IMG/VR virus record: IMGVR_UViG_3300045988_150439
Source of the DNA: a virus
Taxonomy: Duplodnaviria; Heunggongvirae; Uroviricota; Caudoviricetes
Reading direction: 5' to 3' (one strand)
DNA length: 64,000 bases
Shown: piece by piece, positions 6,672-64,000 of the stretch
How the letters are laid out: the number at the start of each line of letters is the position of its first letter
Position numbering within the stretch: position 1 is the stretch's first letter
Translations under genes and position numbers: made by a program
Notes under the pieces: model-generated
The model's input: only the letters and a program-made list of their open reading frames with translations
The model's database searches: none
What the model was told of the DNA's origin: nothing

Positions 6672-6788
6672 TCTTTCAAAAGATACCCACCAGAACAACT
6701 CCCTTCCGTTTCCACTTCCAAAAACTGCCACCAATCGCTATCATCAGCTCATTGTGATAAGTAAGTAACTACCTACCAGGTGAGCCAC

Positions 6789-7529
6789 ATGAGCCAAATC
6801 TTTTTCGACACCATCGACAACGACCAGTACGACTTCATGACAGAGTGGAATACCGCTGTTATGGATAAGTGGGTTGCTGAAAACATTGGTTTGTCGCGCT
6901 GCAAAGACGAGGCTGAACTCTTCGATACGAAGTGGTTTGATTACCGCGACATGCATCCTCTTATGGCCACCTGTCTGTTTACGGAGGCATACAAACGTCA
7001 GTACTCAAATATCATGCTGACGCACGGTCGCGAACACTTTGAAACAGCTCCGTTCACCACCGGGTTAAAACGCCTGCCTTATCAGGAGTTGTCGACTGCC
7101 AATAAAACGTCGCTATGGAAAGCACGCCAGTTTGCTGACCGCTATTGCTGCTCATACGACTACTTTATCTCCACCGTTCTTTCCGCAGCTGCACGACGTC
7201 TGTGGGACAAGCTGCCTCGCCCACAGCATTTGTGGCAGCCAGAACTGATTGAGATATTTGAAGAGAAATTAGCCAGACGCGCAACAACCCGTCTGGATGA
7301 CTCTCTGGTTAGCTTTAAGCATATAGGAGACATGCAGTTCAACCCGATCCAGGAAAGCTATTTTGAGTGGATTCTGGAGCGTTTACGCACCATCCCCCGC
7401 AGCAAGCGCATACGCGCAATTTTCTCCGCTATCTGGCTAATGGAAATCGTTCCAGAGCGCCTTATTTCCGCCCACTTTCCAGAAGAACTGGAAGAAGCAC
7501 GGCGGTTTATTGATCCCCTATCCAATTAA
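6789..7529 (+). CDS. hypothetical protein
   Basis: ORF 6780..7529; ATG 6789 follows AGGTGA; no motif recognised. Confidence 0.5.
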   Translation: MSQIFFDTIDNDQYDFMTEWNTAVMDKWVAENIGLSRCKDEAELFDTKWFDYRDMHPLMATCLFTEAYKRQYSNIMLTHGREHFETAPFTTGLKRLPYQELSTANKTSLWKARQFADRYCCSYDYFISTVLSAAARRLWDKLPRPQHLWQPELIEIFEEKLARRATTRLDDSLVSFKHIGDMQFNPIQESYFEWILERLRTIPRSKRIRAIFSAIWLMEIVPERLISAHFPEELEEARRFIDPLSN

Positions 7530-7572
7530 CTAATACTAGAAAACAATTTGTTTAAAAAACAAAGGAAAGCAC

Positions 7573-23260: not shown

Positions 23261-23355
23261 TTAAAACAGCCTTAAAGATAAGTAACTACTTACCATAGTT
23301 AATGGTATATTTATATAAGAACTTGAACGCTCATTAGAGAACAAAGGAAAAGCGC

Positions 23356-33092: not shown

Positions 33093-35432
33093 ATGGCAAA
33101 AGGAAAATCCGCACTGGCACTTGCTCTGAAAAAGAAAATCGGTAGCAACGACGAAATTCAGAAAGTAACTCATTGGATTGACACAGGCTTTCCTCCGTTA
33201 AACAAAGCTATTTCCGGTCGTTACGATGGCGGTTTCCCATGTGGTCGTATCGTAGAAGTATTCGGGCCACCAAGCGCGGGGAAATGTGTTACCGCAGACA
33301 CCATGCTGCTGACGGAGCGTGGAATGGTAACAGTGAAAGAGTTGTTTGAGATTGAAGGGTACAAAGCGACATGCACTACTCGCGATGTAGAGCATAACGT
33401 TGGACTCATCAATGAAAATGGCGTGATAGAGAAGACCTCACACCTGACATGGAACAACCGTCGCAAATTCAAGCGTATTAAGCTGGCATCAGGCGGTTAT
33501 ATCGAGGCTACGTTCCGTCACCCAATCCGTGTGGTTGACGACTTAGGTAATGTCGTCTGGCGACATGCTGAAAAAATCAGTGTAGGCGACACGATTCCTT
33601 CAATGGTTGGCACACATCAATTCGGCGATCAGCACCTGGATGCCAATATCGCAAAACTGATGGGCTATTTAATTGCTGACGGATACGTGGCCTCTGAAAA
33701 TTCAGTGAATTTTTCTAACACAGATCCTTTCATCAAGGATGAGTACTACCGCCTCATTTCGCTGGTATCAGACAAGATGCCAGTTACGAGAAAACATAAC
33801 GGCTCGGAAGACCATGTGCTGTTTAGCAAAGAGGTGCGTTCGCTGCTTTTTAAAGAATATGGTCTGGAGTATGAGAAAGCTGCTGGCAAGCAGGTTCCGT
33901 TGAGTGTGCGTCGCGCCAATAGCGAGGCTCAAATTGCATTCCTTCGCGGCTACTTTGAGCTGGAATGCCACGTCAATGATGGTCGCTGCATTGAGGTTGT
34001 GAGCGCGAGTGGGCTGCTGCTACAGCAAATTCGCCTCATGCTCCTGAATCTGGGGATTACGTCAACTATCTCTGAAAAACACGTCGCGGGTTATGAAAAT
34101 ACATATTACCGGCTGTCATTCAGTGGCTCTAATTACGACCTTTTTCTGTCAACGATTGGTTTCGAATCTCCGGCACGTTTATCAGTGGCAACCAAACGGG
34201 ACATTGGTTTTGACCGCACTTACTCAGGCTATGTTCCGCACATCAGCGGCTTAGTGAAATCACTCTACGAGTCGCTCACCAAGACCACCCGTGAAGACTA
34301 CGCTCTGGTAGACCACGTTATTGGCCGCGGCGATCGTGTCGGAATAGACAAACTGCGAGAAATCTATGTCTCCTTCATTGGCAGAAAGAATCGTTTTAAC
34401 GAGCATCTGTTTGCACAACTGGCAGCGGTAATTGGCTCTAACTTGTTCTACGACGAAGTCGTGGCTATTGAGGAAGGTGAAGCACCAACGTTCGACGTAG
34501 CGATGCCGGAAACACACTCTTTCTGGTCTAACGGGATTATCAGCCACAACACATTCCTTGCAACAGCAGCGATGATCTCCGCACAGAAACAAGATGGTCT
34601 GGCGGTATTCCTCGATCATGAGAACAGTTTTGACGTTGGCCTGGCTGTAGCCAATGGCCTGAACGCAGATGAGGATGACGGTCAGTGGGTATACAAGCAG
34701 CCAGATACCTTCGAAGACTCTGTAGAGTTGATCGGCACAATACTTAAATTGGTTCGTGATGAAGAGCTTATCCCCGAATCAGCACCTATCTGTATCGTGG
34801 CTGACTCTCTTGCGTCTATGGTTCCGAACTCCAAAGCCGAGAAGTTCGAAAAGATGGCTGAAGGCACTGCCAAAGACAAAGATCAGCTAAACATGAACGA
34901 CAATACGGCACTGGCTCGTGCGACGAGTGCGAACTTCCCTACTCTGGCTTTGTGGGCACGCAAATACAACGCCTGCATCATCTTCTTGAATCAGGTTCGC
35001 ACAAAAATCGGTGTAATGTTTGGCGACCCTACTACGTCGCCAGGTGGAGATTCACCGAAGTTCTACGCTTCTGTACGTATCCGTCTTGGTGCATCGGTGA
35101 TGAAGGATGGTAAAGAGAAGATCGGCCAGGACGTAGGCGCAGAATGCATCAAAAACAAAGTTGCACCACCGTATGGCAAATGCACCTGGAAATTCTACTT
35201 CGATCCTACTCGTGGCCTCGACGTTATCGAATCGCTCGTCGAGTACATGCTGGAAGAAGGATACCTGCCAAAGAACGCCAGCGGGCGAGTTGAAATTGGT
35301 GACAAGAAATACACCAAATCGCAGATCGTCGAGATGTATCGGGAGAAGCCATTAGCAGAAATCATTGCTGCGTTACAGACGATAGATGACCGACGAGAGA
35401 AGACATCACCAACAGAAGAACTAGAAGATTAA
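33093..35432 (+). CDS. recA: RecA-family recombinase interrupted by an intein
   Basis: 779 aa; exteins (64 + 293 aa) match RecA: P-loop GPPSAGK|T, IIFLNQVRTKIGVMFGDPTTSPGGDSPKFYASVRIRLG. Confidence 0.8.
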   Translation: MAKGKSALALALKKKIGSNDEIQKVTHWIDTGFPPLNKAISGRYDGGFPCGRIVEVFGPPSAGKCVTADTMLLTERGMVTVKELFEIEGYKATCTTRDVEHNVGLINENGVIEKTSHLTWNNRRKFKRIKLASGGYIEATFRHPIRVVDDLGNVVWRHAEKISVGDTIPSMVGTHQFGDQHLDANIAKLMGYLIADGYVASENSVNFSNTDPFIKDEYYRLISLVSDKMPVTRKHNGSEDHVLFSKEVRSLLFKEYGLEYEKAAGKQVPLSVRRANSEAQIAFLRGYFELECHVNDGRCIEVVSASGLLLQQIRLMLLNLGITSTISEKHVAGYENTYYRLSFSGSNYDLFLSTIGFESPARLSVATKRDIGFDRTYSGYVPHISGLVKSLYESLTKTTREDYALVDHVIGRGDRVGIDKLREIYVSFIGRKNRFNEHLFAQLAAVIGSNLFYDEVVAIEEGEAPTFDVAMPETHSFWSNGIISHNTFLATAAMISAQKQDGLAVFLDHENSFDVGLAVANGLNADEDDGQWVYKQPDTFEDSVELIGTILKLVRDEELIPESAPICIVADSLASMVPNSKAEKFEKMAEGTAKDKDQLNMNDNTALARATSANFPTLALWARKYNACIIFLNQVRTKIGVMFGDPTTSPGGDSPKFYASVRIRLGASVMKDGKEKIGQDVGAECIKNKVAPPYGKCTWKFYFDPTRGLDVIESLVEYMLEEGYLPKNASGRVEIGDKKYTKSQIVEMYREKPLAEIIAALQTIDDRREKTSPTEELED
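33285..34550 (+). mobile_element. intein with LAGLIDADG homing-endonuclease domain (422 aa) inside recA
   Basis: Starts with Cys (CVTADTM), ends His-Asn before Thr +1; dodecapeptide motifs LMGYLIADGYV and FLRGYFELECHV. Confidence 0.75.
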
Positions 35433-38171: not shown

Positions 38172-38660
38172 TAGCACCAACCACTGCGGTGAGTAGCCAG
38201 CTCACCGCATTCGTATCAGCTCATTATCCACTGTGGTCTGCAGTCCTCTCTTCCTACATATCTGCTAACCACTGTAGCGAGTAGACAACCTTTCATTCGT
38301 ATCAAACAACCACTATGGTGAGTATTGGAGTGAGATGTCCAGCGAGTATCCACTATGGTGAGTAAGCCTTTGCTGTTTTCAGTGGATATCCACTCGCCAC
38401 AGTGGATACGCTCAAAGATGAGGGCGACAACAACCACTATAGACAGTAAATTTTCCAAGATACCCAGTGACCACTAACCTCGCAGCCCTTGTTTCATCAG
38501 TGTTAGTGATCACTAACATTTAATTCAGTATTTGCATTCTACTGCCTACAGTGGTTATCAACAGATAACGATACTCACTATAGTGGATAGCGAATTACAG
38601 ATATAAGTAAGGCTCACTACAGTGGATAGTGAGCCTTACTACTAACTACAGTGGTTGGGC
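38170..38660. repeat. iteron array downstream of repA (incA-like)
   Basis: About 10 copies of core CCACT(A/G)T(A/G)G in both orientations, e.g. aaccactatggtgagta, atccactatggtgagta, cactatagtggatag, cactacagtggatagtgag. Confidence 0.7.
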
Positions 38661-39715
38661 TATTTGCGAGTCTTTGCCTTGCGCAACTCTTCGAGAAGCG
38701 CCAGTTCTTCTTTACTCAACATGACCATTTTGCCTTCTTTTTCGTCAGGCACAACGTCGATAATGTCATCTTGATTCTCATCTGGGAGGCTATATTCCGT
38801 CTCATCATTATCGATTTTTGTTGATATTTGTGCCTGGCGTAACTTTGGCCGCCTATAGTGGATGACGAAGTAGACCGAGTTTCCGCGCTTAACTTCCGTG
38901 TAATCGAGATATCCTATCTCTCGCAGCTGTTCCATAGCCTTTCTTACCGTCGCATTCTGAGTAATAGTGCGACTTGTCAGATTAAGTCTGGCGCGTAAAC
39001 GGGCTAGTGATATTGGTGCCGGATCAGGCGGCAAACTTTCAATAAAAGTATAAAGCGCCTGAGCGGATTCTTTTCTTGAGAGTTCGTTTATAGCCCGGAG
39101 TTGCAGAAGAACCTTTTTGTCGAACTGGTAGAGTTCGAAAATCTTGGGATCTGCTTTCAGTTCGACCGTATCGTGCTTGACACTATATTTTGCCGTTTGC
39201 ACAAGATGCGTTACGTAAAACTCATCAGAGCCTTTGCTACGGAACGAGATGGTATTTGTGGCAATACGGCTTAGCGAACTGTCCAGGCGTTTGCGTAACT
39301 TCGCTGATGACCTGGCGGTCGGAATGCCACACAGCCTTACAAACTCAACGAACGGCAGCGTGACAGTATCGCCAACGACCTTGTGTTTGGCAAACGCGTG
39401 GATTATTCCCACCCACGTTTTAAAGTCGTTATCCATATCAAGCCGAAGGCCAGAGATCCTTATGTCTTCGTACCCTTCGGCTTTTGCCAGAGACAGCTGT
39501 TTGAGTTCAGCAGAGGCATCCATAGAGACCATTTGCCCCTTTCTTCCTCTGGATGTCGATTTCAGCGTCGGAACGAAGAGGCCCAGACGCATCAAAGCAA
39601 CAGGCTGAACAGTGTTATTAGTGTTAGGAACCAACGTAACAACTTCGCCTGTCTTTTTATCTGTTTCTGAAAATGCTTCAACGATCGCTATGTTTTTATT
39701 GCCGTTTTCGCTCAT
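38660..39715 (-). CDS. repA: iteron-binding plasmid replication initiator (RepA-like)
   Basis: 351 aa minus-strand gene flanked on both sides by iteron arrays; start faces the origin-like region. Confidence 0.6.
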
Positions 39716-39759
39716 TCCAAATGTCTCTTGTTATTCGACGGCTTTGGTGGCCTTTGCTG

Positions 39760-40380
39760 ATTACAGTGGATAGTAGCACTCATCACAGCGGTTATCCTAC
39801 CGTCTATAGTGGTTTTTCTCCTCTCTATAGTGGTTGCTTTGCTCCCTATAGTGGATTATTCGCTCTCTATAGTGGATATCGATCATGTCTGAAGGCAGAT
39901 GGCACAACGGTTTGAGGTGGGCGGGGATCTTATTGGGTCTTTATGGGTCTCTTTGGTTCTCTTTGTGATCTGAATTACTGGATCGGGCCTGTGGATAAAA
40001 ATCAGAGGATTTCAAGAACAGGTAACTCTACTCTTCTGTGGATATTTAAGGACATAAGAATCATGACTAAGAGTAGAGTTTAAAATATATCTATGTATAT
40101 CAGTATGTTAATGAAGAATTAAGTCATTAAGTTATCCATAAAAGACAATGTGCTCTACTCTCTACAGTGGATATATACAGCTCTCCAGAGTGGTTGTTTT
40201 ACTCTTCATAGCGGTTATTCAGCTCTCTACAGAGGTTTCTTTGCTCTCCATAGTGGATGGCAACACCCTTTCAGACCAGTAACCGCAACGGCTAGAGGCG
40301 ATCGGGGATCTCTTTGGATCTTCTATTTGATCTTACTTGGGATCTCTTATTTGGATCTATCCAGTGGATAACTGGGATAA
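39760..40380. promoter_or_regulatory. plasmid-type replication origin
   Basis: Four 21-bp iterons CTCTCTATAGTGG (39801-39884) and five more (40157-40262); perfect DnaA box tgtggataa near 39990 plus two 1-mismatch boxes; AT-rich stretch 40060-40140; GATC clusters at 39915-39985 and 40300-40357. Confidence 0.7.
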
Positions 40381-40458
40381 GTAAAACAGGCAAATGCAGA
40401 TTAAGGTATGCCTAATGAGTTATCGTAGCATCGGCCAATAACTACTGAAAAAACGATT

Positions 40459-53776: not shown

Positions 53777-54571
53777 ATGGGACAACCGGTAGACATAACA
53801 GGTAAACGTTTTGGAAAGTTGGTTGCACTTAAATATTCCGGTATTTCAAACAAACAAGGGCGACTTTGGGATTGCATCTGCGATTGCGGCAACACCTGCC
53901 TGGTTAGTTACGGGAAGCTAAATCACGGGGCGACAATATCGTGTGGCTGTGTCTACAACGCACATCGCCGTAGCGTAAAGCCTCATGGTATGAGTAAAAC
54001 GCCAATTTATCGTATATGGCTGGGTATGCGGGAACGATGTGAAAAACCAACCCATCACGCCTATAAGTGGTATGGCGGCCGAGGTATCAAAGTCTGCGAG
54101 CGGTGGCAAATATTTGAAAACTTTTATGCTGACATGGGAGAGCGACCAGAGGGGATGTCTCTTGATCGCAAAGATGTGAATGGTGACTACGAACCTGAAA
54201 ATTGCAGATGGGCGACTTTTGAAGAACAGGCCAATAACACGCGTTCAAACTTAATTTTGGAGCATAAGGGGGAAAAGCTGACTCTCTCACAATGGGCTAA
54301 AAGAGCCGGGATTCAGACATCAACTCTTCACTATCGAATCAAGAAAGGGTGGCCATTAGATCGCGCGCTTAACGCCAGCGTCGACACGTATGCCAACCGA
54401 GATAGTAAGCGTCTGATCGAGTGTCGCGGCAGAACTCAGCGAATTACCGAATGGGCTAGAGAGGTTGGCTTGACTGCGACCATTATATCGCAGCGAATCT
54501 TGAGGGGGTGGGATGTTGAAGCTGCCATCTTCACACCGTCCAAACGACCAGTAAAAGGAGATAAAAAGTGA
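53777..54571 (+). CDS. free-standing HNH-type homing endonuclease
   Basis: Cys-rich N-terminal module, LDRKDVNGDYEPENCRWAT..EQANNTR motif, two C-terminal HTH-like repeats (SQWAKRAGI / TEWAREVGL). Confidence 0.6.
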   Translation: MGQPVDITGKRFGKLVALKYSGISNKQGRLWDCICDCGNTCLVSYGKLNHGATISCGCVYNAHRRSVKPHGMSKTPIYRIWLGMRERCEKPTHHAYKWYGGRGIKVCERWQIFENFYADMGERPEGMSLDRKDVNGDYEPENCRWATFEEQANNTRSNLILEHKGEKLTLSQWAKRAGIQTSTLHYRIKKGWPLDRALNASVDTYANRDSKRLIECRGRTQRITEWAREVGLTATIISQRILRGWDVEAAIFTPSKRPVKGDKK

Positions 54572-55116
54572 TTGCTACAGGGGTGGACATCGAATCAACA
54601 GGTCTTGATTTCCTCTCAGGCCATAAAATCATTGAAATCGCAATGGTGAAGTACGAAATTGAGACACAGACAATGGTTGATAGTTTTGTAATGCGGTTCA
54701 ACCCGCGTCGCAGTATCGATCCGAAAGCGCAAGCGGTACACGGCATCAGTCTTGAAGATTTAGCCGCCGAGCCGTTACTAGCCGATCACGCTTCATCTGT
54801 CGCTTCGTATCTCTCTTCTTCCGATATTTGGATAGCCCACAACGGCGAAGCGTTCGATATTCCGTTTATTAGGCATGAGCTGAAAAGTTACGGTTTTTCG
54901 CTTCCAGACATCCCATTGATTGACACTCTATTTTCCCTGTGGGCCACAGAAGACGGTAAACGTCCACGCCTTGAAGAGTTGGCCTTCTCTCTTGGCTTTA
55001 TATACGATCATGCCAAAGCACATAGTGCCTTATATGACACAAACTTAATGATGCAATGCTTCTTTAAGGCACGTAATAAGTACGGATTTTTTAAATTACC
55101 CTCTGAAATTGTGTAA
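54568..55116 (+). CDS. DnaQ-like 3'-5' exonuclease
   Basis: Exo I GVDIESTG, Exo II WIAHNGEAFD, Exo III YDHAKAHSALYD. Confidence 0.75.
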   Translation: MIATGVDIESTGLDFLSGHKIIEIAMVKYEIETQTMVDSFVMRFNPRRSIDPKAQAVHGISLEDLAAEPLLADHASSVASYLSSSDIWIAHNGEAFDIPFIRHELKSYGFSLPDIPLIDTLFSLWATEDGKRPRLEELAFSLGFIYDHAKAHSALYDTNLMMQCFFKARNKYGFFKLPSEIV

Positions 55117-55120
55117 AACA

Positions 55121-55159
55121 AAAGCCTACTTTAAAAAGTTTAAAGTAGGCTTTCTTTTA
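55121..55159 (+). terminator. rho-independent terminator
   Basis: aaagcctacttt...aaagtaggcttt hairpin followed by cttttaa. Confidence 0.6.
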
Positions 55160-55274
55160 AAGAACAGTCGCCTTTCAATCATTTCCTGCCTGTATTTAAT
55201 ACTTTTCCGCCTGATAGGTTTAGTCAAAATGTAGCCATCGAAACGCAAATGTAACCAAACAGAAGGAGACTTAC

Positions 55275-56084
55275 ATGAGTTCGGTTGAAAATGTAATGAC
55301 AAATTATGATCTGGACGAACTGACAGCCATGTTGCAATCACTTGATGAACCGGTAAAAAAAGCTGCACAGGTTGAAAATACTGATGATATTGACGATCTG
55401 CTGCTCGGCCTAGATGCTGGCGTAGCCATGAGTTCTGATGATGTTGCCGAAGAACTGTTCAATGAAGAAAAAGCAGGTGATTTCAGCTCTGCTTTAAATG
55501 AGTTGGAGTTAGCGCATGAGCCTATAAACGTAATTAACGCTGAAAGTGTTGAAGCTGCCGAAAACGAGCCAGAACAATTGGGATTTATTGAGGTTGAAGA
55601 GTGTGTTGAGGTTAATGATGAATTAAAAGTTCAACAGTCAAATGATAGCAACACAAATAAAAAAGCGCGTACTGCAAGAGGTCCTCGTTTTACTCTAAGT
55701 GATAAAGATGATGCGTTTTTCAATAAAGCGGGTTTAGAGAAAGATATTTTTTTAGATGCTTATGAGAACGCGCCTGTCAAAGCAAAGGATAAGATATTAA
55801 ACCTTCTTAATTGGTTTAGCGGAGGTCCAGATATTAGTGTTTACACGGTAATTTCCATGAGACACCTTCTCACAGAAAAGAAGGCTACAAGTAATAGTAT
55901 TAAGATTGCTTTAATGAGCAATCCAGAAAAACCGTATCCGCTTAACACTGCGTCAACTCAGGCTGGGCAAATGATGGCTGTATTTCCAGCTACAGGAATT
56001 GCTGTTAGAGACGGTGGAAATCTAACATTGAACGAAGAATCACCGATCGTTAATAAGTTTGTCGCGGAGTACACTATTGGATGA
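55275..56084 (+). CDS. acidic hypothetical protein
   Basis: 269 aa, Asp/Glu-rich N-terminal half. Confidence 0.45.
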   Translation: MSSVENVMTNYDLDELTAMLQSLDEPVKKAAQVENTDDIDDLLLGLDAGVAMSSDDVAEELFNEEKAGDFSSALNELELAHEPINVINAESVEAAENEPEQLGFIEVEECVEVNDELKVQQSNDSNTNKKARTARGPRFTLSDKDDAFFNKAGLEKDIFLDAYENAPVKAKDKILNLLNWFSGGPDISVYTVISMRHLLTEKKATSNSIKIALMSNPEKPYPLNTASTQAGQMMAVFPATGIAVRDGGNLTLNEESPIVNKFVAEYTIG

Positions 56085-56162
56085 CGTTCCCCTACTGAAA
56101 ATAAAGCCCATAGAGAGCTTTATAGTGCTGGGTAAGCCAATCACATACCCAGCACCACAAAA

Positions 56163-56208
56163 ACGCGCCAGAGAGCTTCTCGTTTGCATTTCTGGCGCGT
56201 TTTATTTG
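56163..56208 (+). terminator. rho-independent terminator
   Basis: acgcgccaga...tctggcgcgt stem followed by tttatttg. Confidence 0.55.
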
Positions 56209-56267
56209 ATTGCCAGACATAAAATCAAATGCAAAAATAGGTAATCACTTACCTATCGAGAAAGAAG

Positions 56268-56861
56268 ATGATTGCAGCCGAAAAAATCAAACAGCGAAAG
56301 CGCGACAACTCTCTTCGTGACCTCTGGAGAACACCTGATTGGCTGTTTTCTGCCATTCAACGTTATCTTGGAGTGACATTTGATGTTGACGTTGCCTGCA
56401 ACAAGGACAACGCAAAGCTGCCTAATTTCATAGGCATTGAGCGTGATGCTTTGAAATCTGAATGGGGACAGCCAGGTACAATTGCCTTCCTCAATCCACC
56501 CTACTCCAAAATCTCCCCCTGGATTGATGCTGCTATACGTGAGCAGGCTCGCGGAGTTACAACAGTGATGCTAATTCCTCAATCCCTCGATACAAAGTGG
56601 TATGAGCGTGCAACAGAGTATGCGAATGAGACGATTATTCTGTCTGGTGGCCGCGTAGCGTTTGTCGAGCCTGACGTCAATTTGGGTCAGGTAGAAGTAA
56701 ACATCAACCCCGGTGGCAGTATGCTCGTTGTTTTTCGAGGATTCTGTCAGGACGCTGGGCACTCTATAAGCAAGATCCCTTTGGACGTCATGAAAAGTCT
56801 GGGAGGGTATAATCCTGCGAATGTGATCAGGAAAAAAAGACCATCAAAGAAGGCTGCTTAG
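56268..56861 (+). CDS. DNA N6-adenine methyltransferase (phage Dam-like)
   Basis: 197 aa; FLNPPYSKI catalytic motif. Confidence 0.65.
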   Translation: MIAAEKIKQRKRDNSLRDLWRTPDWLFSAIQRYLGVTFDVDVACNKDNAKLPNFIGIERDALKSEWGQPGTIAFLNPPYSKISPWIDAAIREQARGVTTVMLIPQSLDTKWYERATEYANETIILSGGRVAFVEPDVNLGQVEVNINPGGSMLVVFRGFCQDAGHSISKIPLDVMKSLGGYNPANVIRKKRPSKKAA

Positions 56862-56884
56862 TTTGCTCTGGCGTCTGTAATTAG

Positions 56885-56941
56885 CCTGCTTCTGTATATA
56901 TATAAATAACTACATATTAATTATTAATATACGGAAGCAGG
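56885..56941 (+). repeat. AT-loop hairpin element copy 2
   Basis: Stem cctgcttctgtatat / atatacggaagcagg; matches element at 6621..6671. Confidence 0.5.
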
Positions 56942-57024
56942 CTGTTTTGTATCAGAGACTCCAGACCTGAACATCACTACAGAATCCACTAGAACCCCTT
57001 CCCAGACGCTTTAAAATCGATTTT

Positions 57025-57279
57025 ATGAACCACTTTAAGGAAACCAACATGTCATACCCGACTAATGTCGTTGCGCTCGTAGAGAGCGATTTTCTGGCTA
57101 AGGCTCGTGAAATGATGAAAGATCGCGAGCAGGCTTTCAACTTGTACGAATGGGCAATTAAGTGCTTGCATCTTGGGGAGCATCGCGAACTTGTTGAACA
57201 GCTTTTAGGTGAGTTGATCAACGAGGTGTTTGCCTTGAATGTTCAACTACATGGTCGAGAAAATAATCAATCGAAATGA
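57025..57279 (+). CDS. hypothetical protein (84 aa)
   Basis: ORF only; helical. Confidence 0.35.
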   Translation: MNHFKETNMSYPTNVVALVESDFLAKAREMMKDREQAFNLYEWAIKCLHLGEHRELVEQLLGELINEVFALNVQLHGRENNQSK

Positions 57280-57299
57280 TAGATAAGTACAAACTATTC

Positions 57300-57810
57300 A
57301 TAAAATGAATTGTAAGTGCTAAGATCTGATAGTTTCCAGTCGTAGACTGGAGACTCGACCTGATGGGTGGGGGTAAGCGTCACTGGCGTCAGGTTTAAAA
57401 AAGCTCACTACCAGCGTAGAACCGGTGCCGTTTAGGTGTCGGGGAAGGGGGAACCAAAGTGAGCGGAGACAAGGGTCACTTTATGATTGTCGAGTCTGGG
57501 GTGTTTCGAGAGGTTGAATCCAGTACTCCCCTTCATAAAGTGTGGGAAGATCTCGGTTCTGGGGTGCTGTCATCCATAACTTCCCAAGTCTAAGCTGGCA
57601 GTAGACTTAGACCATAGCTTTTCAGGTTATGAAACGACCAGGTTGGTGAGGAATTTTATACTCACCTCCCTGGGAGAGTATTACCTGAAAAGACAACCTC
57701 TCACTTCGTTCGAGGTGAACTTCACTCACTTCGTTCGTTCAGTTCAGGTTTATAAAAACCTGTTCTGGGAAGTAATTTGTTTATTTTAATAATTATTAAC
57801 ACGCACGCGT
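57300..57810. other. ORF-free structured region upstream of rnhA (candidate ncRNA or origin)
   Basis: About 510 bp with no ORF of 60 aa or more on the plus strand; several stem-forming segments and a GC palindrome acgcacgcgtgtgcgcacgcgcg near 57800. Confidence 0.3.
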
Positions 57811-57861
57811 GTGCGCACGCGCGAGGAAAAAATCGGCGCGGCGCTTGATTCAGGAGTTTAT

Positions 57862-58455
57862 ATGACGACGAAGACACCAGCCCGATCGCAAGAAAAAACT
57901 CGCAAAAAAGCCAAAAACAAAAATTCTCCCCGCGCCAATTCCACAACGCCTGTCGTAGAGTTCAATCCCCAGCTTAAAACCGTGAAAATCTTCAGTGATG
58001 GCTCTTGCCTTAAAAATCCGGGTGGCCCGGGCGGTTACGGTATAGTTCTCCAGTATCGTGGTGAGGAACGCGAGTTCTCAGATGGTTTTCATAGCACCAC
58101 CAATAACCGCATGGAGATGATGGGGGCACTTATTGGGCTGGAGCGTTTGAAATATCCATGCAACGTTATTTTGCACTCTGATAGCCAGTATCTGAAAAAC
58201 GGCATGACACAGTGGATGAAATGGTGGAAACGCAATGGATGGGTGACTTCTGACAAAAAACCGGTAAAGAATGTTGATCTGTGGAAGCGTCTGGATGAGG
58301 CCGCAAGTCGACATAATGTTCGCTGGAAGTGGGTTAAAGGTCACGCCGGGCATCGTGAAAATGAAATATGTGATCGACTCGCGAAGATCGCAGCTTTTTC
58401 CGCAGCAGATATGCCTCACAAGAAAGATATTGGTTTTGTTTACAACAAGCAGTAA
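57862..58455 (+). CDS. rnhA: ribonuclease HI
   Basis: ORF 57811..58455; probable ATG 57862 follows AGGAG. Motifs [34 protein letters not shown]; basic N-terminal extension. Confidence 0.85.
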
Positions 58456-58600
58456 GTAAGTGTTTACCTATCATTTTAAATCATGTATCTTATCAGCGTC
58501 AGGATGACAATGTGTCGGTAAGACACAGTTCCAGGATGGAACGAGAAAGGCGGCTGGCAATCGCCAGCCGCAACTCTTTCTGACACTGGATGGAGTCCAC

Positions 58601-59095
58601 ATGGCACGTCAAACCTATTTCACTTCTGCAACTAAACGTCCTCGTTCACTACGTCAAATTTTGGCCGAATTATTTAGCGGTCGTGTTCTGTCACGTCTTG
58701 ATGAACTAGAGACTGCCGTTCGGTTGCTGAATGAACGTTTAGATAAGCAAGCGTCAGTTGTTGCGAACGTGGGGGCGATTGTTACCTCTGGTTCTTCACG
58801 CGAAGCGAAAAGTACACGGCCTTTAGTGAAGGAGAAAAACAACAAGGACAGTTCGAATGGAAAATTTTCAAAGAAAGAGGCTGAAACCAATGGCCTACGT
58901 TCTCATTATAGTTTCACTGGCGACGATAGCCGTTCCAGCCGGCCAGAGCCTTTTGATGCCGGGTTCATCCATCACCACACCTCCGTCGACGACAATTACC
59001 ACCACTCCAGTAGAGCGTCCTGTCACTCTGGATGGGATGACGGTGGATGCGATACCTCAAGTTCATCCAGTTACTCAGGATCATGCTGTGACTAA
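58601..59095 (+). CDS. hypothetical protein
   Basis: 164 aa ORF; helical N-terminus, low-complexity Ser/Asp/His-rich C-terminus; an overlapping frame (58857..59108) encodes a membrane-like peptide, so the true gene structure is unclear. Confidence 0.3.
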   Translation: MARQTYFTSATKRPRSLRQILAELFSGRVLSRLDELETAVRLLNERLDKQASVVANVGAIVTSGSSREAKSTRPLVKEKNNKDSSNGKFSKKEAETNGLRSHYSFTGDDSRSSRPEPFDAGFIHHHTSVDDNYHHSSRASCHSGWDDGGCDTSSSSSYSGSCCD

Positions 59096-59104
59096 GGCGG
59101 TTGT

Positions 59105-59302
59105 ATGAACTGGTTTTCAAATCACTTTGGAAAAACTTGGCTGGCGATTCTGGCTTTCATAGCTCTCATGGCCGCCGGTTGGGTATCGAACATTGTAAAA
59201 CTCGTTTGCTCTGGTGATCTCCAGTTTCAGGCTGGTATGACCTTGGCTCGTGTTGTTGGGATTTTTGTTTTTCCAGTCGGTTCGGTACTTGGTTATTTCT
59301 GA
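59105..59302 (+). CDS. small membrane protein (65 aa)
   Basis: Two hydrophobic helices. Confidence 0.4.
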   Translation: MNWFSNHFGKTWLAILAFIALMAAGWVSNIVKLVCSGDLQFQAGMTLARVVGIFVFPVGSVLGYF

Positions 59303-59395
59303 CGGTTGTTAGTGCATATGCATTGACCGTCTTTTCGTAAGCAATTCATGTAACTAGAAAACAACTTGTTTTAACAAATAATAAAAGGAAAGCAC

Positions 59396-59821
59396 ATGTT
59401 AGGTTTATTCAAAAAGAAAACTCGTAAAGCTGTTATCGAGGTCAAAAAAATGGAGAACCGAGATGCGGTTGAAGCCACCGTGTGGGGCGCGTACATGATC
59501 TCCTATGCCGATGGCACATGCGACGCAAAGGAAATTTCCATTCTTGAGAAAACAATTGCAGCTCTGCCTGCGTTTTCTCCGTTTGCTGGTGAGATTGCCC
59601 AAATGAGCGCCAATATCCGTGCTCAATACGAAGCCTCACCGCGCCGCGCTAATGCCCAGGCTTTACGTGAGCTGGCTGATGTGGCCGGGACTAATGATGC
59701 AGTAGATGTACTGTGTCTGTGCCTTGATATTGCCGACCAAGACGGTATTGGCGAACAAGAAGAGCTGGCCCTGAAAAAGATCGCACAGGCGCTTCAGTTG
59801 TCACTGGATGCTTATCTCTAA
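59396..59821 (+). CDS. hypothetical protein (TerB-like?)
   Basis: 141 aa; helical with YADGTCDAKEISILE and DIADQDGIGEQEELALKKI segments reminiscent of TerB-type domains; conserved aaaggaaagcacATG context. Confidence 0.35.
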   Translation: MLGLFKKKTRKAVIEVKKMENRDAVEATVWGAYMISYADGTCDAKEISILEKTIAALPAFSPFAGEIAQMSANIRAQYEASPRRANAQALRELADVAGTNDAVDVLCLCLDIADQDGIGEQEELALKKIAQALQLSLDAYL

Positions 59822-59979
59822 TGCTTGAGAGATTCCGGCTTGTGACCGTCATTGCTCTTCTGGTGATGGCGGTGTTGGTGGATTTTACGGGAAAGATGAT
59901 GTCTGTCATTTCTGATGGCGTCCTCATTGGTCTGGCGATCTACTTCGCTTATCCGCTAGTCCGTAAAGCAACGTGTTAA
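59821..59979 (+). CDS. small membrane protein (52 aa)
   Basis: Below track cutoff; TAATG overlap with upstream stop; two hydrophobic segments. Confidence 0.35.
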   Translation: MLERFRLVTVIALLVMAVLVDFTGKMMSVISDGVLIGLAIYFAYPLVRKATC

Positions 59980-59981
59980 TG

Positions 59982-60010
59982 ACAAGGGCCAAATGGCCCT
60001 TGTGTTTCGT
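59982..60010 (+). terminator. rho-independent terminator
   Basis: acaagggcc-aaat-ggcccttgt followed by gtttcgtt. Confidence 0.6.
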
Positions 60011-60118
60011 TGACCGAAATAGAGAGTTTGCACCTTTACGTTTAGCTTGCTCCCCTTTTATGCCACATCACAATAAAGCCAATAAGAAAACAACTTGTTT
60101 AAGCATTAGGAAAAACAC

Positions 60119-60688
60119 ATGTGCAAGAAATGCAAAGCGATAGCTGATGAACAAAACGCCTTATTCGAAGAAATGGATGCTAATGAACTGGTCAAAATGT
60201 TAGCCATTCTTCGAGGAATAGAAGACGTTTCCATATTTGAGAGAGTGGTTACAGCACTTAATTTTGAGTCCACCTTTGAAGAGCCAACTCAGGTTGTAGC
60301 TTTAGCACATCATTTCGGTGTTCATTATCTTGCTGAAAAAGAGCGCGCTGATAAGTTGCAGGCGGCTTTGGATATGGTGAGCGAGACTCAACGAACTGAT
60401 GACACTAACAAGAGTGAGGCGATTATTGCCAGCAAAGATCGTGAAATTGCTGGGCTTAAATCCTCTCTAACGATGTTGATGTCTGCGTTCAATCTTATGT
60501 CTTCTCAGGCGGGTTATAAAATGCCATCACTAAACAGTGATGATCCGATGGCCGTTCGTCAGCTTTTGGGAGCAATGGCCGACCAACTCGACGACACAAA
60601 GAGTCGGCTTGAAGACATGATGCGTGAGTTAAGCCATCGACATAACCTCGCAACACAGCCACACAAAGCCTTTCAAAGCTCTAATTGA
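60119..60688 (+). CDS. hypothetical protein
   Basis: 189 aa; N-terminal CKKC; helical; conserved aaaaacacATG context. Confidence 0.45.
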   Translation: MCKKCKAIADEQNALFEEMDANELVKMLAILRGIEDVSIFERVVTALNFESTFEEPTQVVALAHHFGVHYLAEKERADKLQAALDMVSETQRTDDTNKSEAIIASKDREIAGLKSSLTMLMSAFNLMSSQAGYKMPSLNSDDPMAVRQLLGAMADQLDDTKSRLEDMMRELSHRHNLATQPHKAFQSSN

Positions 60689-60743
60689 TCTGATATGGCC
60701 GCATGATCGGCCATATTGTGTTGATAAAAAACAAGGATGAAAA

Positions 60744-61025
60744 ATGGCATACGGTACAGGGATTTACAACAATAAAGGAATTAACGTTACTGGCTTCCTT
60801 ACTCCTATTTTTTTTCTTGATCGATTTACTGCGTCATCAGGCTCTAAGACGTACTCCAATCCGCCACCGGGTAAATCGCTACATGCCGTGTGGTCATTGA
60901 TGCCTCTTAACAACGACAACTACATTAATTTACCTGTTCCAACAGTTACTATTAATGGAAATACGGTTAGTTGGTCAAATTTATATACGGGGCTTGGTTC
61001 TTACATATACACATACTGGGGATAA
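60744..61025 (+). CDS. hypothetical protein (93 aa, Gly/Asn/Tyr/Thr-rich)
   Basis: ATG follows AGGA; beta-rich composition. Confidence 0.4.
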   Translation: MAYGTGIYNNKGINVTGFLTPIFFLDRFTASSGSKTYSNPPPGKSLHAVWSLMPLNNDNYINLPVPTVTINGNTVSWSNLYTGLGSYIYTYWG

Positions 61026-61027
61026 TT

Positions 61028-61642
61028 ATGTTCGGGATGTCAATTACACAATCAGATGGAAGTTTGTGGATGAGTCCAGAATTTACTCCGCAAAATCTGA
61101 TTAATAAAGGGACAATGTCTACATCTAAAGGTTCTGTTTTTCAAACATCAATCCCATCAAACAAATCATGCTTTTTCTTCATAAAAAGCAGTAATAAGGC
61201 GAACATGATGTTTATTCATGAGCATAGTAACGGATACAATGCTCTCAGATTGCATCAGGTAAATGGTAGCCCCGGAACAATAACAGTTTATGCTTTTTCT
61301 GATATGGTGTTACCACATTCTGGCTATGGCATTGCCATGTATAACAGCGCAGGCGCAATGGTGTATCACGGTGAGATGATGCCCCTTGATGCGAAACTTA
61401 TCACTATTTCTGACCCTCAATTTACAATAGATATGGGGTATCCATGTGCGGTAATGCCTGCTATGGTTGGGGTATATAACTATAGACGAACCGATTACGA
61501 CAGACCTGTCTATGTAACAATGACAGGTGCAACTGGAAACCAAGTATATAACGGTCAATGGTATTCCGGTAATGTCACATGGGATATTAAGAAGATTTAT
61601 ACAAACAAAATTCTGGTGATAAATACCTCCAAGTATGATTAG
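61028..61642 (+). CDS. hypothetical protein (204 aa)
   Basis: ORF 60971..61642; probable ATG 61028 after GGGGA and upstream stop; Tyr/Asn/Gly-rich. Confidence 0.4.
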   Translation: MFGMSITQSDGSLWMSPEFTPQNLINKGTMSTSKGSVFQTSIPSNKSCFFFIKSSNKANMMFIHEHSNGYNALRLHQVNGSPGTITVYAFSDMVLPHSGYGIAMYNSAGAMVYHGEMMPLDAKLITISDPQFTIDMGYPCAVMPAMVGVYNYRRTDYDRPVYVTMTGATGNQVYNGQWYSGNVTWDIKKIYTNKILVINTSKYD

Positions 61643-61745
61643 CCAATGCCTTTATTTGAAGGATTGCCTGTTTATTTCTATTTAGTACCTTTTCATTTTT
61701 GAAATAATTGCACCATTAAACAAATCACTTCTTAATGGTGCAATT

Positions 61746-63431
61746 ATGAATACAGCCCTTTCCATCATCGACGATGCCAACTCAAACACTGCTATCGACT
61801 ATCGGCAGGAAATGAACGTCATCCACGAAATTGTGGCCGAGTGCGAGAAAGAGATCGCCTTCATGTATCAGGTACACGACTTCGTTTATGGCGACGAACG
61901 CCACAACATGATTAATCGCCTGCTGAGACTAAACCATCGACCAGATGAAGATCGCTCGCGTTTAAATCGAGGTTGGTTGGATAAAGTCGATCTGGAATGG
62001 GTGAAACAGAATATTTGGGCCGAGTACTGGAGGAAGGTCACGGACATGACTAACGTTTTGCTGATCATGCCAGCTTCCCGTCGAGATGAGTGGCGCGAGC
62101 AGTTTATAGAGGGCAAACAGGAAGTCATCAAAACTGACAGAACCGGCTACCAGATGAAGGTTAAAGAGTTCGTTGGTGTACCGGAGTTCAAAGCAGAAAC
62201 GGTCATACCCACGATGCTTAATTTGCTGAATGACAGGCACAAATATCTCTCTGAGCGCGTGTATGGCTTGTTTAAGGCGCTGAGTCCTGCGCACAAGACA
62301 AATAAGACAAACGGTTTCAGCGAGCGTCTGATAATCGCTGACTGCATTTCTGATTTCTGGCGGGACAGCGTTAGCGTGAACTATCGCAAAGAGGACTACA
62401 TCGACGATCTGCGTGTCTTGCTTCATTTCTTCGCGCACAAAGAATTTATTACCATCAACCGCACTGCTGAGGTGCTATCAGCTGCGTATCGAGCAAACGA
62501 CTGCCAGACCGGTGACTGGATTAACGTCGATGGAAATCTGATGCGCGTGAAGATGTTCAAGAACGGCAACGTTCACTTTGAAATACATCCTGACGTGGCC
62601 TGGAAGTTGAATGAGGTGCTGGCTTACAGTATGCCTGCTGCAATCCCCGCGCCATGCCGAACTGCGCCAAAAACACGGGCACCAAAGCAGTTCGGTTTAA
62701 TCCAGAAGACGATCTCCGTGCAGGTTCGCACTGCGCTTCGTGACGGGCGATTGAGCAAAGACAAAGGCGTATGGTACTTCTCTGATTCAGCTCTCCAGAA
62801 GTCGCAGGTGGAAGAGCTTGAGCGCACACTGAGCTTCATTGGCGGCGTGCAGGAGAAAAAGCACTGGCAGTTCCCGTATGACATCGGCCATACGCTAAAT
62901 ACGATTGTGGCTACCGGTTTAATACCGGATACAAAATCACACCAGTTCTACCCTACCCCACGCTTGATTGCTGAGTACGTTGCCAGAGCCACTGAATTGA
63001 AGCCTGGTGAGAAGCTGTTGGAGCCTCAAGCCGGACGTGGGGATCTTCTGGCCTATATTAACGCCGATCTGGAAGATGTTACCTGCATAGAAATCGCACC
63101 TCTCTTCGCTGATATCCTGCGTGGAAAAGGGTATACGAACACGATTTGCTGCGACTTCATAAAGTGGTCTGAGGACAACGCAGGTTATCAGTTCGACAAA
63201 ATCGTTATGAACCCGCCGTACTCGCTTGGTCGTCATAGAGAGCACACGCTGGCTGCGCTGGGGCATCTGAAAGTCGGCGGGCGTCTTGTAGCAGTATTGC
63301 CGGGCACTGCGCCAATACTGGACTGGATGACGATGGATAATTACGTTTATGCCAGAGGGAAGTCGTTTACCAACGAGTTTGAAGACACAGGGATCACAGT
63401 CAGCGTATACGTTTTCAAACGCGTTAAATGA
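61746..63431 (+). CDS. DNA methyltransferase with large N-terminal domain
   Basis: 561 aa; C-terminal FYPTPR, SAM-binding LEPQAGRGDLL, catalytic VMNPPYS (motif I before IV); N-terminal ~390 aa unassigned. Confidence 0.55.
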   Translation: MNTALSIIDDANSNTAIDYRQEMNVIHEIVAECEKEIAFMYQVHDFVYGDERHNMINRLLRLNHRPDEDRSRLNRGWLDKVDLEWVKQNIWAEYWRKVTDMTNVLLIMPASRRDEWREQFIEGKQEVIKTDRTGYQMKVKEFVGVPEFKAETVIPTMLNLLNDRHKYLSERVYGLFKALSPAHKTNKTNGFSERLIIADCISDFWRDSVSVNYRKEDYIDDLRVLLHFFAHKEFITINRTAEVLSAAYRANDCQTGDWINVDGNLMRVKMFKNGNVHFEIHPDVAWKLNEVLAYSMPAAIPAPCRTAPKTRAPKQFGLIQKTISVQVRTALRDGRLSKDKGVWYFSDSALQKSQVEELERTLSFIGGVQEKKHWQFPYDIGHTLNTIVATGLIPDTKSHQFYPTPRLIAEYVARATELKPGEKLLEPQAGRGDLLAYINADLEDVTCIEIAPLFADILRGKGYTNTICCDFIKWSEDNAGYQFDKIVMNPPYSLGRHREHTLAALGHLKVGGRLVAVLPGTAPILDWMTMDNYVYARGKSFTNEFEDTGITVSVYVFKRVK

Positions 63432-63492
63432 TAGGTAAATACTTACTTAATTTGTGTAAGAATGTAGTTACTAAACGATAAGAGAAAAACAC

Positions 63493-64000
63493 ATGAACAA
63501 CCTCCAGTTAGAGCATTTTAACGTCACAGGCCATTCTGATTTTCCTTTCAAGTTTACATTGAAAGGTTATGCAGAGGATGCGGTAGGCCAGATCATTATT
63601 GATAAAGGCATCGTTAAGTTTGAGGGGAATTTTGATGAATCCGCGAAAACATTCATAGACTTCGTTGCCAAACGTTGGAGCGAGCAATGGAAAGACCTGG
63701 AAAAGCGCGCTAGTGAGTTTGATCGGTTCATGGATGCAATGGATACAGCAAAAGAGGCTCTGGCTGCCGGGACTCCGTTAGATCTGGAGTCACTTTTCAA
63801 CGGCGAAGTGGCATCTGCGATGTTCGCTACCATGTTCGCGGGTGAGTTCGTCCGCAGCGGTGCCAAAAATTACCTTGAGCTGGATTACAACGTCCCTGCA
63901 ATTGGCGATTTCGTCGTTACCATCCAACGCAAAGAAGGTAAGACGCCAGGTGAACGCGTCGCAGAACTTGAGGCTGTTGTGGATCAGCGTAACGGAGAGT
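63493..64000 (+). CDS. hypothetical protein, 3' end outside window
   Basis: Not in ORF track because it has no stop before the window edge; ATG in conserved agagaaaaacacATG context; frame open for ~169 codons. Confidence 0.5.
   Translation, partial: MNNLQLEHFNVTGHSDFPFKFTLKGYAEDAVGQIIIDKGIVKFEGNFDESAKTFIDFVAKRWSEQWKDLEKRASEFDRFMDAMDTAKEALAAGTPLDLESLFNGEVASAMFATMFAGEFVRSGAKNYLELDYNVPAIGDFVVTIQRKEGKTPGERVAELEAVVDQRNGE

Follow-up and report, generated by a model that had tools for sequence, protein, structure and literature searches.

The window analysed here, a 64,000-nt stretch of DNA, takes in the half of an SSU5/pHCM2-type phage-plasmid of E. coli that carries its DNA-metabolism and early genes. 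It shares 97.6% identity with E. coli phage Cyrano (pLF82), with a range of 97.6-97.9% for phages Cyrano and CMS-2020a, 83% with SSU5 and 99.3% with many plasmids of ~110 kb. Two predicted orphan SAM-dependent adenine-N6 DNA methyltransferases are encoded in it, a small Dam-like enzyme and a 561-aa fusion protein (Table 1). A sequence-only reading had proposed such a pair, one Dam-like and one fused to a large N-terminal region, and profile, sequence and fold matches bear this out. Both open reading frames were recovered as first described, and identical CDS boundaries are annotated in Cyrano (CYRAN_79 and CYRAN_90) and SSU5 (SSU5_088 and SSU5_095). Public records already annotate both genes, so the finding is otherwise ordinary; one uncharacterised domain, DUF4942, remains. 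We found no functional study of either methylase in the literature on DUF4942, SSU5/pHCM2 methylation and PF05869, and no methylome or biochemical data on either protein in the searchable literature.

Table 1. Features at the two methyltransferase loci, numbered by position in the window
Feature	Position (nt)	Residues (aa)	Strand	Basis
Sigma-70-like promoter match (TTGCCA, 17-nt spacer, AAAAAT, extended -10 TG)	56210..56238		+	Consensus scan only
Putative small phage Dam-family N6-adenine DNA methyltransferase gene (ATG start)	56268..56861	197 aa	+	PF05869, TIGR01712, phrog_111, PADLOC
Perfect 16-nt inverted repeat, 12-nt loop	61704..61747		+	Repeat search
DUF4942-methyltransferase fusion gene (ATG start)	61746..63431	561 aa	+	ORF; phrog_6263 full length, E 5e-299
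Conserved DUF4942 core	62016..62645	91-300	+	Pfam match covers aa 140-295
Compact class I SAM-dependent amino-methyltransferase domain	62931..63428	396-561	+	Motifs, fold
Motif X, QFYPTP	62943-62960	400-405	+	561-aa catalytic domain
Motif I, EPQAGRG	63021-63041	426-432	+	561-aa catalytic domain
Motif III, DF		470-471	+	561-aa catalytic domain
Motif IV, NPPY	63210-63221	489-492	+	561-aa catalytic domain

Both genes are orphans, with no adjacent endonuclease of the kind that marks Type II restriction-modification among the scanned neighbours (55275-56084, 57025-57279, 57811-58455, 58601-59095, 59396-59821, 60119-60688 and 60971-61642). PADLOC, Pfam, PHROGs and NCBIfam detected no nuclease or defence-system family in this set, and no HsdS-like neighbour of the 561-aa gene was found there; small ORFs at 59105-59302, 59821-59979 and 60744-61025 lay outside the scan. 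No nuclease was found beside homologs of the 561-aa protein in five other contexts, and no Rfam match was found in 55000-64000.

The small Dam-family gene

The 197-aa protein matches PF05869 (E 5e-38, 130.8 bits against a cut-off of 28.1), TIGR01712 phage_N6A_met (113.6 bits, cut-off 97.05), phrog_111 (E 5e-65) and PADLOC orphan MTase models. It has the form of the family, with a (D/N)PPY motif IV, a length of ~170-200 aa and no separate recognition domain. Its NPPY (aa 76-79, nt 56493-56504) lies within FLNPPYS and aligns with the NPPY of VT2-Sakai orf32, a protein of similar size (175 aa) that itself matches PF05869 (E 6e-65) and is 39% identical to the small protein over 145 residues, NPPYS included. 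Unlike orf32, the window's enzyme has an extra basic C-terminal tail of ~25 aa. Because orf32 is the sole methylase-like ORF annotated in VT2-Sakai, it is presumably M.EcoVT2Dam, for which a GATC target has been reported (PMC6602927). Judging from this 39% identity, the small enzyme most likely methylates GATC to give G(m6A)TC. Like M.EcoVT2Dam, it is an orphan in the early/DNA-metabolism region of a temperate phage. The non-specific methylases Hia5/Hin1523 were considered as relatives and dropped, as they carry DPPY and FxGxG motifs and form a different subfamily.

A purine-rich ribosome-binding site (GAGAAAGAAG) precedes the ATG of the small gene, and the sigma-70-like match sits ~30 nt upstream of the gene. 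No dN/dS figure is given for the gene because dS against SSU5 is saturated. Across the whole region, promoter-like matches are fewer than in shuffled sequence.

The DUF4942-methyltransferase fusion

The 561-aa protein shares 99% identity with a database cluster that holds 1,384 sequences under the name 'DUF4942 domain-containing protein', and its gene is under purifying selection (dN/dS of 0.09 against SSU5_095). The architecture of the family is fixed, with a variable helical region (aa 1-90), the DUF4942 core, a variable small domain (aa 301-395) and the catalytic domain.

The motifs first noted in the C-terminal part of this protein are all present (HQFYPTPR at aa 399-406, EPQAGRGD at aa 426-433 and NPPYS at aa 489-493). 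Across 21 homologs, the most distant at 33% identity, motifs X, I, III and IV show little or no variation. Of 134 full-length representatives, 131 retain [N/S]PP[F/Y/W], and the median length that follows it is 71 aa (~70 aa in the 561-aa protein). The motif order X-I-III-IV is that of the gamma class (M.TaqI/HsdM/Eco57I) and, as in gamma-class N6-adenine methylases, the domain adopts the class I SAM-methyltransferase (Rossmann) fold with seven strands. Its best PDB sequence match is M.TaqI, with which TP / EPxxxxG / DF / NPPY align residue for residue. Against Pfam N6_Mtase (PF02384) the domain scores 18.3 bits, just under the cut-off of 20.4, which the homolog P0100 passes with 25.8 bits. 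The giant orf71 of VT2-Sakai, tried as a relative of the catalytic domain, showed no similarity. The substrate of the 561-aa enzyme is presumably DNA.

The N-terminal domain had been described as unassigned, which is not entirely correct. A domain search places aa 140-295 in Pfam DUF4942 (PF13708; E 1.6e-20, 74.1 bits, cut-off 25), which distant homologs match as well; this family is without known function. The DUF4942 core is conserved as strongly as the catalytic domain (H183, D221, R223, D262, H277, H281 and N289 are invariant), has the lowest dN/dS and includes a predicted beta-beta-alpha element (aa 266-295) that bears H277, H281 and N289. Unlike gamma-class enzymes, the 561-aa protein has no C-terminal target-recognition domain, and we therefore propose that the DUF4942 region supplies DNA binding, with the core as a substrate-binding module.

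At the start of the gene, the right arm of the inverted repeat (ATAATTGCACCATTAA / TTAATGGTGCAATTAT) spans a Shine-Dalgarno-like GGTG and reaches two bases into the start codon. The RNA fold of the repeat has an energy of -19.1 kcal/mol (z -5.3; 0 of 200 shuffles fold as well), and the repeat may act as a hairpin that controls translation or as an operator. The hairpin appears to be lineage-specific, because it is present in Cyrano and degenerate in SSU5 and Klebsiella phage GArcari.

The family of the 561-aa protein is found on phages, prophages and plasmids, usually adjoining other orphan methylases, and a DUF4942-methylase occurs in 2,535 of 72,556 PLSDB plasmids (~3.5%) and in many prophages. 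On IncHI2 plasmids a homolog lies 2 kb from a D12-class Dam, and in the early regions of lambdoid prophages homologs lie beside N6_N4 and C5 methylases. These IncHI2 (e.g. pEC-IMP WP_000096325) and lambdoid-prophage proteins have the same architecture, with 31-39% identity over 83-100% of the length, and like the window's gene theirs adjoin another orphan methylase, although the backbones are different and the partners are D12 Dam, N6_N4 and C5 enzymes. Resistance genes in Enterobacterales are often carried by SSU5-type phage-plasmids and IncHI2 plasmids, and the establishment of these elements in new hosts depends partly on escaping restriction. No member of the DUF4942-methylases has a known target, and a defined specificity would close a gap both in methylome annotation and in what is understood of host range.

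Expression in lysogens and the GATC array at the origin

Published transcriptomes of Cyrano lysogens in LB (PMC9928086 S1 Table; log2(5+fpkm), detection floor 2.32) give values of 2.82/2.32 for CYRAN_79, the small Dam-like gene, and 3.11/2.82 for CYRAN_90, the 561-aa gene. RepA (7.39/6.63) and the repressor (6.75/6.39) are clearly expressed in the same lysogens. Both methylase genes are silent in the plasmid (lysogenic) state, as read in the 97.6%-identical Cyrano, and this silence suggests that both may be expressed in the lytic phase. Owing to this silence, the activity of the two enzymes will escape methylomes of plasmid-bearing strains, and an absence of element-specific methylation on lysogen or plasmid DNA would be no clean refutation of self-methylation.

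In the interval that separates repA from the following gene, six GATC sites at 40300-40357 recur about once per helical turn (~10-13 bp), with iterons and DnaA-box-like sites alongside. Salmonella SSU5, Klebsiella, Cronobacter and a second E. coli lineage all keep the GATC cores unchanged while the spacers vary. A Poisson estimate for the array is 3e-7 per 60-bp window, or ~0.02 when corrected for scanning the whole window. The overall GATC count (277 observed, 244-319 expected) indicates neither avoidance nor enrichment and is uninformative. Methylation control of this GATC-rich origin had also been raised as a possibility by the sequence-only reading. The array is real and conserved, but its link to the element's own methylases is unsupported in the plasmid state, where the Cyrano transcripts are at the floor, and origin control by these enzymes in that state is unlikely. 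E. coli has its own Dam (PMC4659465), and origin methylation in plasmid mode would come from the host enzyme, since the small gene is at the transcript floor and repA is expressed.

Proposed self-methylation and its alternatives

Given that transcripts of both genes are at floor level in lysogens, the data are best read as pre-protective self-methylation during lytic growth or entry. We think it probable that the Dam-family and DUF4942 adenine methylases are off in lysogeny and on in the lytic or early phase, pre-protecting DNA against restriction. Both genes would presumably be switched on with the lytic or early programme, replicating element DNA would be methylated before packaging, and the packaged DNA would thereby be pre-protected from restriction on entering the next host. 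An anti-restriction benefit of self-methylation, likewise proposed by the sequence-only reading, is plausible; because E. coli already has Dam, a second GATC enzyme would add protection only if the host Dam is outrun in lytic replication.

The Dam-like enzyme might instead mainly serve the element's own DNA transactions, either by keeping the origin array, packaging signals or promoters fully methylated in fast lytic replication or by blunting the host's mismatch repair and SeqA sequestration. The position of the six-GATC array next to the iterons and DnaA-box-like sites, its invariant cores among variable spacers in diverged relatives and its Poisson estimate are consistent with such a role, as is the precedent of P1, whose oriR and pac depend on GATC methylation by Dam. 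P1 is a temperate phage kept as a plasmid, with its own adenine methylases Dmt (the phage Dam) and DarB (a virion methylase-helicase), TciA/TciB-like genes near the methylase and an iteron origin with a GATC array and DnaA boxes. The window's element is likewise a temperate phage-plasmid with its own adenine methylases, TciA/TciB-like genes near the methylase (Cyrano annotation) and an iteron origin with a GATC array and DnaA-box-like sites; its small Dam presumably belongs to a different family from P1 Dmt. However, in the plasmid state repA is expressed and transcripts of the small gene stay at the floor, the GATC specificity of its product is deduced only from 39% identity, and a role in the element's own transactions is compatible with anti-restriction. 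We consider it somewhat unlikely that such transactions are its main function.

For the 561-aa protein, the closest structural neighbours of the catalytic domain are the rRNA m6A enzymes METTL5, PH1948 and Erm/KsgA, which counts against the DNA-methylase reading. The protein could instead be an RNA or protein amino-methyltransferase for host takeover, such as one that makes m6A or m2G in host rRNA/tRNA or one with protein glutamine as its target. We hold this alternative to be quite improbable. If DUF4942 were a second enzymatic module, such as a nuclease, the protein would be a single-chain enzyme of restriction-modification (Type IIG-like) or exclusion, with the lysogen and not the phage as its beneficiary. 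Such an enzyme would fit a core as conserved as a catalytic domain, with invariant His, Asp, Asn and Arg residues and the predicted beta-beta-alpha element, a weak PADLOC REase_MTase_IIG match (E 0.0012) that covers the methylase part only, and one phage homolog annotated 'RE endonuclease'. Searches of aa 1-395 turned up neither a nuclease family nor a nuclease fold, and the C-terminal recognition domain of Type IIG/IIL enzymes is absent, although DUF4942 might harbour a cryptic active site. We regard a Type IIG-like enzyme as extremely improbable.

The DUF4942 core might also be a conserved, structurally unprecedented module that gives this family of mobile-element methylases a non-canonical choice of substrate, and not an ordinary variable target-recognition domain. 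We think this unlikely, although conservation equal to that of the catalytic domain, the lowest dN/dS and the recurrent sequence-specific orphan methylase neighbours on unrelated elements would fit it. These enzymes might then, for example, methylate adenines with low specificity or couple methylation to the structure or replication of the DNA, and either mode could shield it from many restriction systems simultaneously, in the manner of M.EcoGII and M.EcoGIX. The plasmid methylases M.EcoGIX and M.BceJIII are promiscuous (SAY) and single-strand-specific and protect DNA as it enters (PMC7736820), and M.EcoGIX gives no detectable methylation signal in the whole-genome methylome of its host strain (PMC4659465). 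Their resemblance to the window's enzymes, as adenine-methylating orphans of mobile elements that would counter restriction at entry, is a functional analogy only. Unlike them, the 561-aa protein has the gamma-type motif order, NPPY and DUF4942, with no homology demonstrated beyond the fold; homology to M.EcoGIX was rejected, as that enzyme is of the beta class with DPPY (PMC7736820).

Membership of the MADS defence system was likewise rejected, as the mad2 model matches the catalytic part only (aa 393-523, E 1e-15); the only other mad match is a 28-residue mad1 match in ORF 53777-54571. Nor is the protein a DarB-like virion protein: at 561 aa it lacks the helicase fusion of P1 DarB, and there is no evidence of virion packaging. 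Only its catalytic domain, a relative of the methylase domains of DarB-like and giant virion proteins, resembles stretches of PHROG families of 1,259-3,925 aa and a Serratia phage Parlo protein annotated 'DarB-like antirestriction protein'.

The element and its small methyltransferase

Over the 7.6 kb around both methylase genes, identity is 97.6-97.9% with Escherichia phages CMS-2020a and Cyrano (plasmid pLF82 of strain LF82), 99.3% with many ~110-kb non-mobilizable E. coli plasmids, and 83% with Salmonella phage SSU5 in a match split in two pieces. Elsewhere the window carries a Rep3-type repA, replication and recombination genes (DnaB-like helicase, primase, ligase, Pol III alpha, gp32-like SSB, RecA with an intein, SbcCD) and further genes of DNA metabolism (ribonucleotide reductase, thymidylate synthase, exonuclease, RNase H). 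These matches and this gene set together identify the element, as judged from its sequence, as a phage-plasmid of the SSU5/pHCM2 type. Both methylase genes lie in the DNA-metabolism/early block, where every gene is on the + strand, and no nuclease or defence-system family was matched among their scanned window neighbours.

A sequence-only reading had described two DNA methyltransferases here, one with a large unassigned N-terminal domain. Both ORFs are confirmed, with the same CDS limits annotated in Cyrano (CYRAN_79, CYRAN_90) and SSU5 (SSU5_088, SSU5_095), and the motifs it quoted are found in the proteins. The large N-terminal domain is also real, but it is unassigned only in part, since Pfam DUF4942, a family of uncharacterised function, covers aa 140-295 (E 1.6e-20). 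Both genes belong to known kinds and are annotated in hundreds of public records, the small one as 'phage N-6-adenine-methyltransferase' and the large one as 'DUF4942 domain-containing protein' or 'putative DNA modification methylase'.

Positions of the features discussed in the text
Feature	Position	Strand	Details
CobT-like protein with VWA domain, then AAA_5 (dynein-related) ATPase	21152-24591	+	702 aa; 411 aa
Pol III alpha	24772-28290
RecA-like protein	33093-35432	+	779 aa; Pfam RecA, Intein_splicing, LAGLIDADG_3
repA, Rep3 family	38660-39715	-
Plasmid origin	39716-40458		between repA and next gene; iterons, DnaA box, GATC array, GGATAA boxes
Consensus DnaA box	39990
GATC array	40300-40357		at 40300, 40307, 40317, 40329, 40341, 40354
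Weakly matched ORF	53777-54571	+	264 aa
Dam-like gene	56268-56861	+	197 aa
CYRAN_81 ORF	57459-57593	+	44 aa, GTG start
TerB-family protein, then hydrophobic (by eye) ORF	59396-59979	+	141 aa; 52 aa
Inverted repeat	61704-61747		perfect, 16 nt; 12-nt loop
DUF4942-methylase gene	61746-63431	+	561 aa

The 197-aa protein matches Pfam PF05869 (E 5e-38), NCBIfam TIGR01712 (113.6 bits, cut-off 97.05), phrog_111 and the PADLOC orphan-methylase models. With orf32 of phage VT2-Sakai it shares 39% identity across 145 residues; orf32 also belongs to PF05869 (E 6e-65), and no other ORF of that phage carries a methylase-like annotation. Because of this likeness and the reported GATC specificity of M.EcoVT2Dam from VT2-Sa (PMC6602927), its target is most likely GATC. 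The non-specific enzymes Hia5 and Hin1523 were discarded as relatives, as their DPPY and FxGxG motifs place them in another subfamily (PMC3299994). Orthologs with 58-100% identity reside on contigs of ~105-112 kb from Escherichia, Salmonella, Klebsiella, Cronobacter, Enterobacter, Xenorhabdus and Providencia, and 750 of the 765 PLSDB plasmids encoding the protein are non-mobilizable.

Several other features of the element were recorded. An intein carrying a LAGLIDADG homing-endonuclease domain splits the RecA-like protein. The CobT-like/AAA_5 pair, upstream of the Pol III alpha gene, is an unusual pairing for a phage replication block. The 264-aa ORF has weak matches only (PVL_ORF50, E 9.5e-4, below cut-off; PADLOC mad1 over 28 residues). 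Between the two methylase genes, the TerB-family protein and 52-aa ORF are labelled P1 TciA-like and TciB-like in Cyrano; in SSU5 an antirepressor, SSU5_093, takes their place, flanked by the conserved ORFs SSU5_092 and SSU5_094, which makes the stretch separating the two conserved methylases mosaic.

The DUF4942-methylase family

Along its entire length the 561-aa protein matches phrog_6263 'DNA methyltransferase' (E 5e-299). An alignment of 21 homologs, with identities as low as 33%, shows complete or near-complete conservation of QFYPTP (aa 400-405), EPxAGxG (426-432), DF (470-471), D484 and NPPxS (489-493). The best PDB sequence for the profile from this alignment is M.TaqI (E 4.8e-4), with which motifs X, I, III and IV pair one to one, and residues 396-561 form a complete class I fold with seven strands (AlphaFold2 model, pLDDT 82, pTM 0.62). 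The isolated catalytic domain scores just under the Pfam N6_Mtase cut-off (18.3 versus 20.4 bits), which one homolog (P0100) exceeds; two others (P0116, P0241) exceed that of MTS. Only this part is matched by the PADLOC models for Type II methylases and by mad2, the MADS methylase; it also resembles parts of giant phage proteins (1,259-3,925 aa) and of one protein annotated as DarB-like. The C-terminus lies ~70 residues past motif IV, and the protein is therefore without a C-terminal recognition domain.

Using aa 1-395 as a phmmer query against 1.84 billion representatives, we found 609 clusters, 160 of them at E <=1e-30. Almost all matching proteins are 494-701 aa long (median 536) and match at their N-terminus. 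Among 134 full-length matches, 131 carry a C-terminal [N/S]PP[F/Y/W] motif (NPPF in 109) and 125 have motif I, with a median of 71 residues from motif IV to the protein end. The shared N-terminus and C-terminal methylase motifs thus show that the 'fusion' is no local event: it is the architecture that defines a sizeable family. When the protein is compared with seven distant homologs, identity is 11% over aa 1-90, 45% over 91-122, 39% over 123-300 and 30% over 301-395; in the catalytic domain it is 41%. Against SSU5, dN/dS is 0.09 for the whole gene and lowest, at 0.048, in aa 91-300, the segment under the strongest constraint.

Four papers were found to mention DUF4942, and all of them do so just in gene tables; one entry, orf56/L0010 in the SRL island of Shigella, is listed after KlcA-, RadC- and YeeU/V-like genes. 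At the start of the 561-aa gene, the right arm of the inverted repeat spans a Shine-Dalgarno-like GGTG and the first two start-codon bases. The predicted RNA hairpin has -19.1 kcal/mol (z -5.3); the repeat is kept in Cyrano and degenerate in SSU5 and a Klebsiella relative.

Expression in lysogens and the plasmid origin

Published RNA-seq of Cyrano in LF82 (overnight LB cultures, log2(5+fpkm), floor 2.32; PMC9928086 S1 Table) gives 2.82/2.32 for the Dam-like gene and 3.11/2.82 for the DUF4942 gene, compared with 7.39/6.63 for RepA, 6.75/6.39 for the repressor and 6.82/6.92 for CYRAN_81. Given these near-floor values, both methylase genes are essentially silent in the plasmid state. The DUF4942 gene reaches 5.6-6.0 only after 6 h inside macrophages (PMC9928086), and orphan methylases on prophages of E. 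coli EC958 were likewise reported as transcriptionally inactive (PMC4659465). The CYRAN_81 ORF, which alone occupies the gap separating the Dam-like gene from RNase H, yields a transcript 12-fold over prophage background in lysogens, unlike its neighbours (PMC9928086 Table 1 and S1). Its region has no match in Rfam, and it may encode a small moron protein or act as a non-coding RNA.

The origin contains two sets of CTCTATAGTGG-type iterons and six GATC sites at 7-13 bp spacing, with the GGATAA boxes after them. The Poisson chance of at least six GATC in a given 60-bp stretch is 3e-7, or ~0.02 corrected for scanning the whole window. When the region is aligned with those of SSU5, a Klebsiella phage, a Cronobacter phage and a second E. 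coli lineage, every GATC core and GGATAA box is unchanged, while the spacers differ. The GATC-rich origin noted from sequence is real, with a layout that we take to resemble Dam/SeqA-sensitive origins of the P1 oriR type. The suggestion that the element's own methylase controls this origin fared less well: in plasmid mode such control is unlikely, because the methylases are silent there and the host has Dam. Action at the origin during lytic replication is possible.

Proposed role and genomic contexts

We favour a reading, and think it rather probable as a whole, in which both proteins would be orphan adenine-N6 DNA methyltransferases made with the lytic or early programme and modifying freshly replicated element DNA, so that packaged genomes would reach the next host pre-protected; self-methylation for anti-restriction had been proposed in the sequence-only reading. 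Once host Dam can no longer keep pace, the small enzyme would supplement GATC methylation; the large one would contribute another methylation pattern, its DUF4942 region presumably binding DNA in lieu of a C-terminal recognition domain. Of this reading, the identity of the genes, the fold, the architecture, the orphan status, the selection and the silence in lysogens are established, while DNA as the large enzyme's substrate, both specificities, the timing of expression and the benefit are inferred. That the Dam-like enzyme instead serves replication, packaging or regulation is unlikely, and would be compatible with anti-restriction; the invariant GATC array speaks for it, the silence of the gene in lysogens against it. 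For the DUF4942 region, invariant polar residues are grouped in the core (R164, S180, H183, T185, N186, D221, R223, D262, H277, H281, N289, R305), and comparison of the model with BFVD matched two uncharacterised viral proteins only. A non-canonical, broadly protective mode of methylation conferred by this region is doubtful, and a cryptic second catalytic activity hidden in it is very improbable.

Self-methylation remains our preferred reading, and the family's genomic contexts speak for it. Four of the five independent contexts have a second orphan methylase within ~5 kb of the DUF4942-methylase, and none of the five showed a restriction nuclease nearby, a pattern that fits mobile elements stacking protective methylases. 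The Variovorax homolog sits in the early region of a lambdoid prophage with an N6_N4 methylase gene directly after it, an Enterobacterales homolog is flanked by replication genes, an N6_N4 methylase and a C5 methylase, and another lies between a UvrD-type helicase and a primase. IncHI2-type conjugative plasmids (L018, pEC-IMP, 3560-7844; L011 5655-9638) carry a full-length DUF4942-methylase ~2 kb from a D12-class Dam; on pEC-IMP the homolog has 563 aa, and a 116-kb contig shows this layout too. The IncHI2 pairing mirrors that in the window, although the Dam families are unrelated. In prophages of Variovorax and Enterobacterales, the gene is paired with an N6_N4 or C5 methylase. The family's DUF4942 core is conserved and structurally orphan, and tblastn found the protein in 2,535 PLSDB plasmids (~3.5%), 1,690 of them at <60% identity and 1,360 conjugative.
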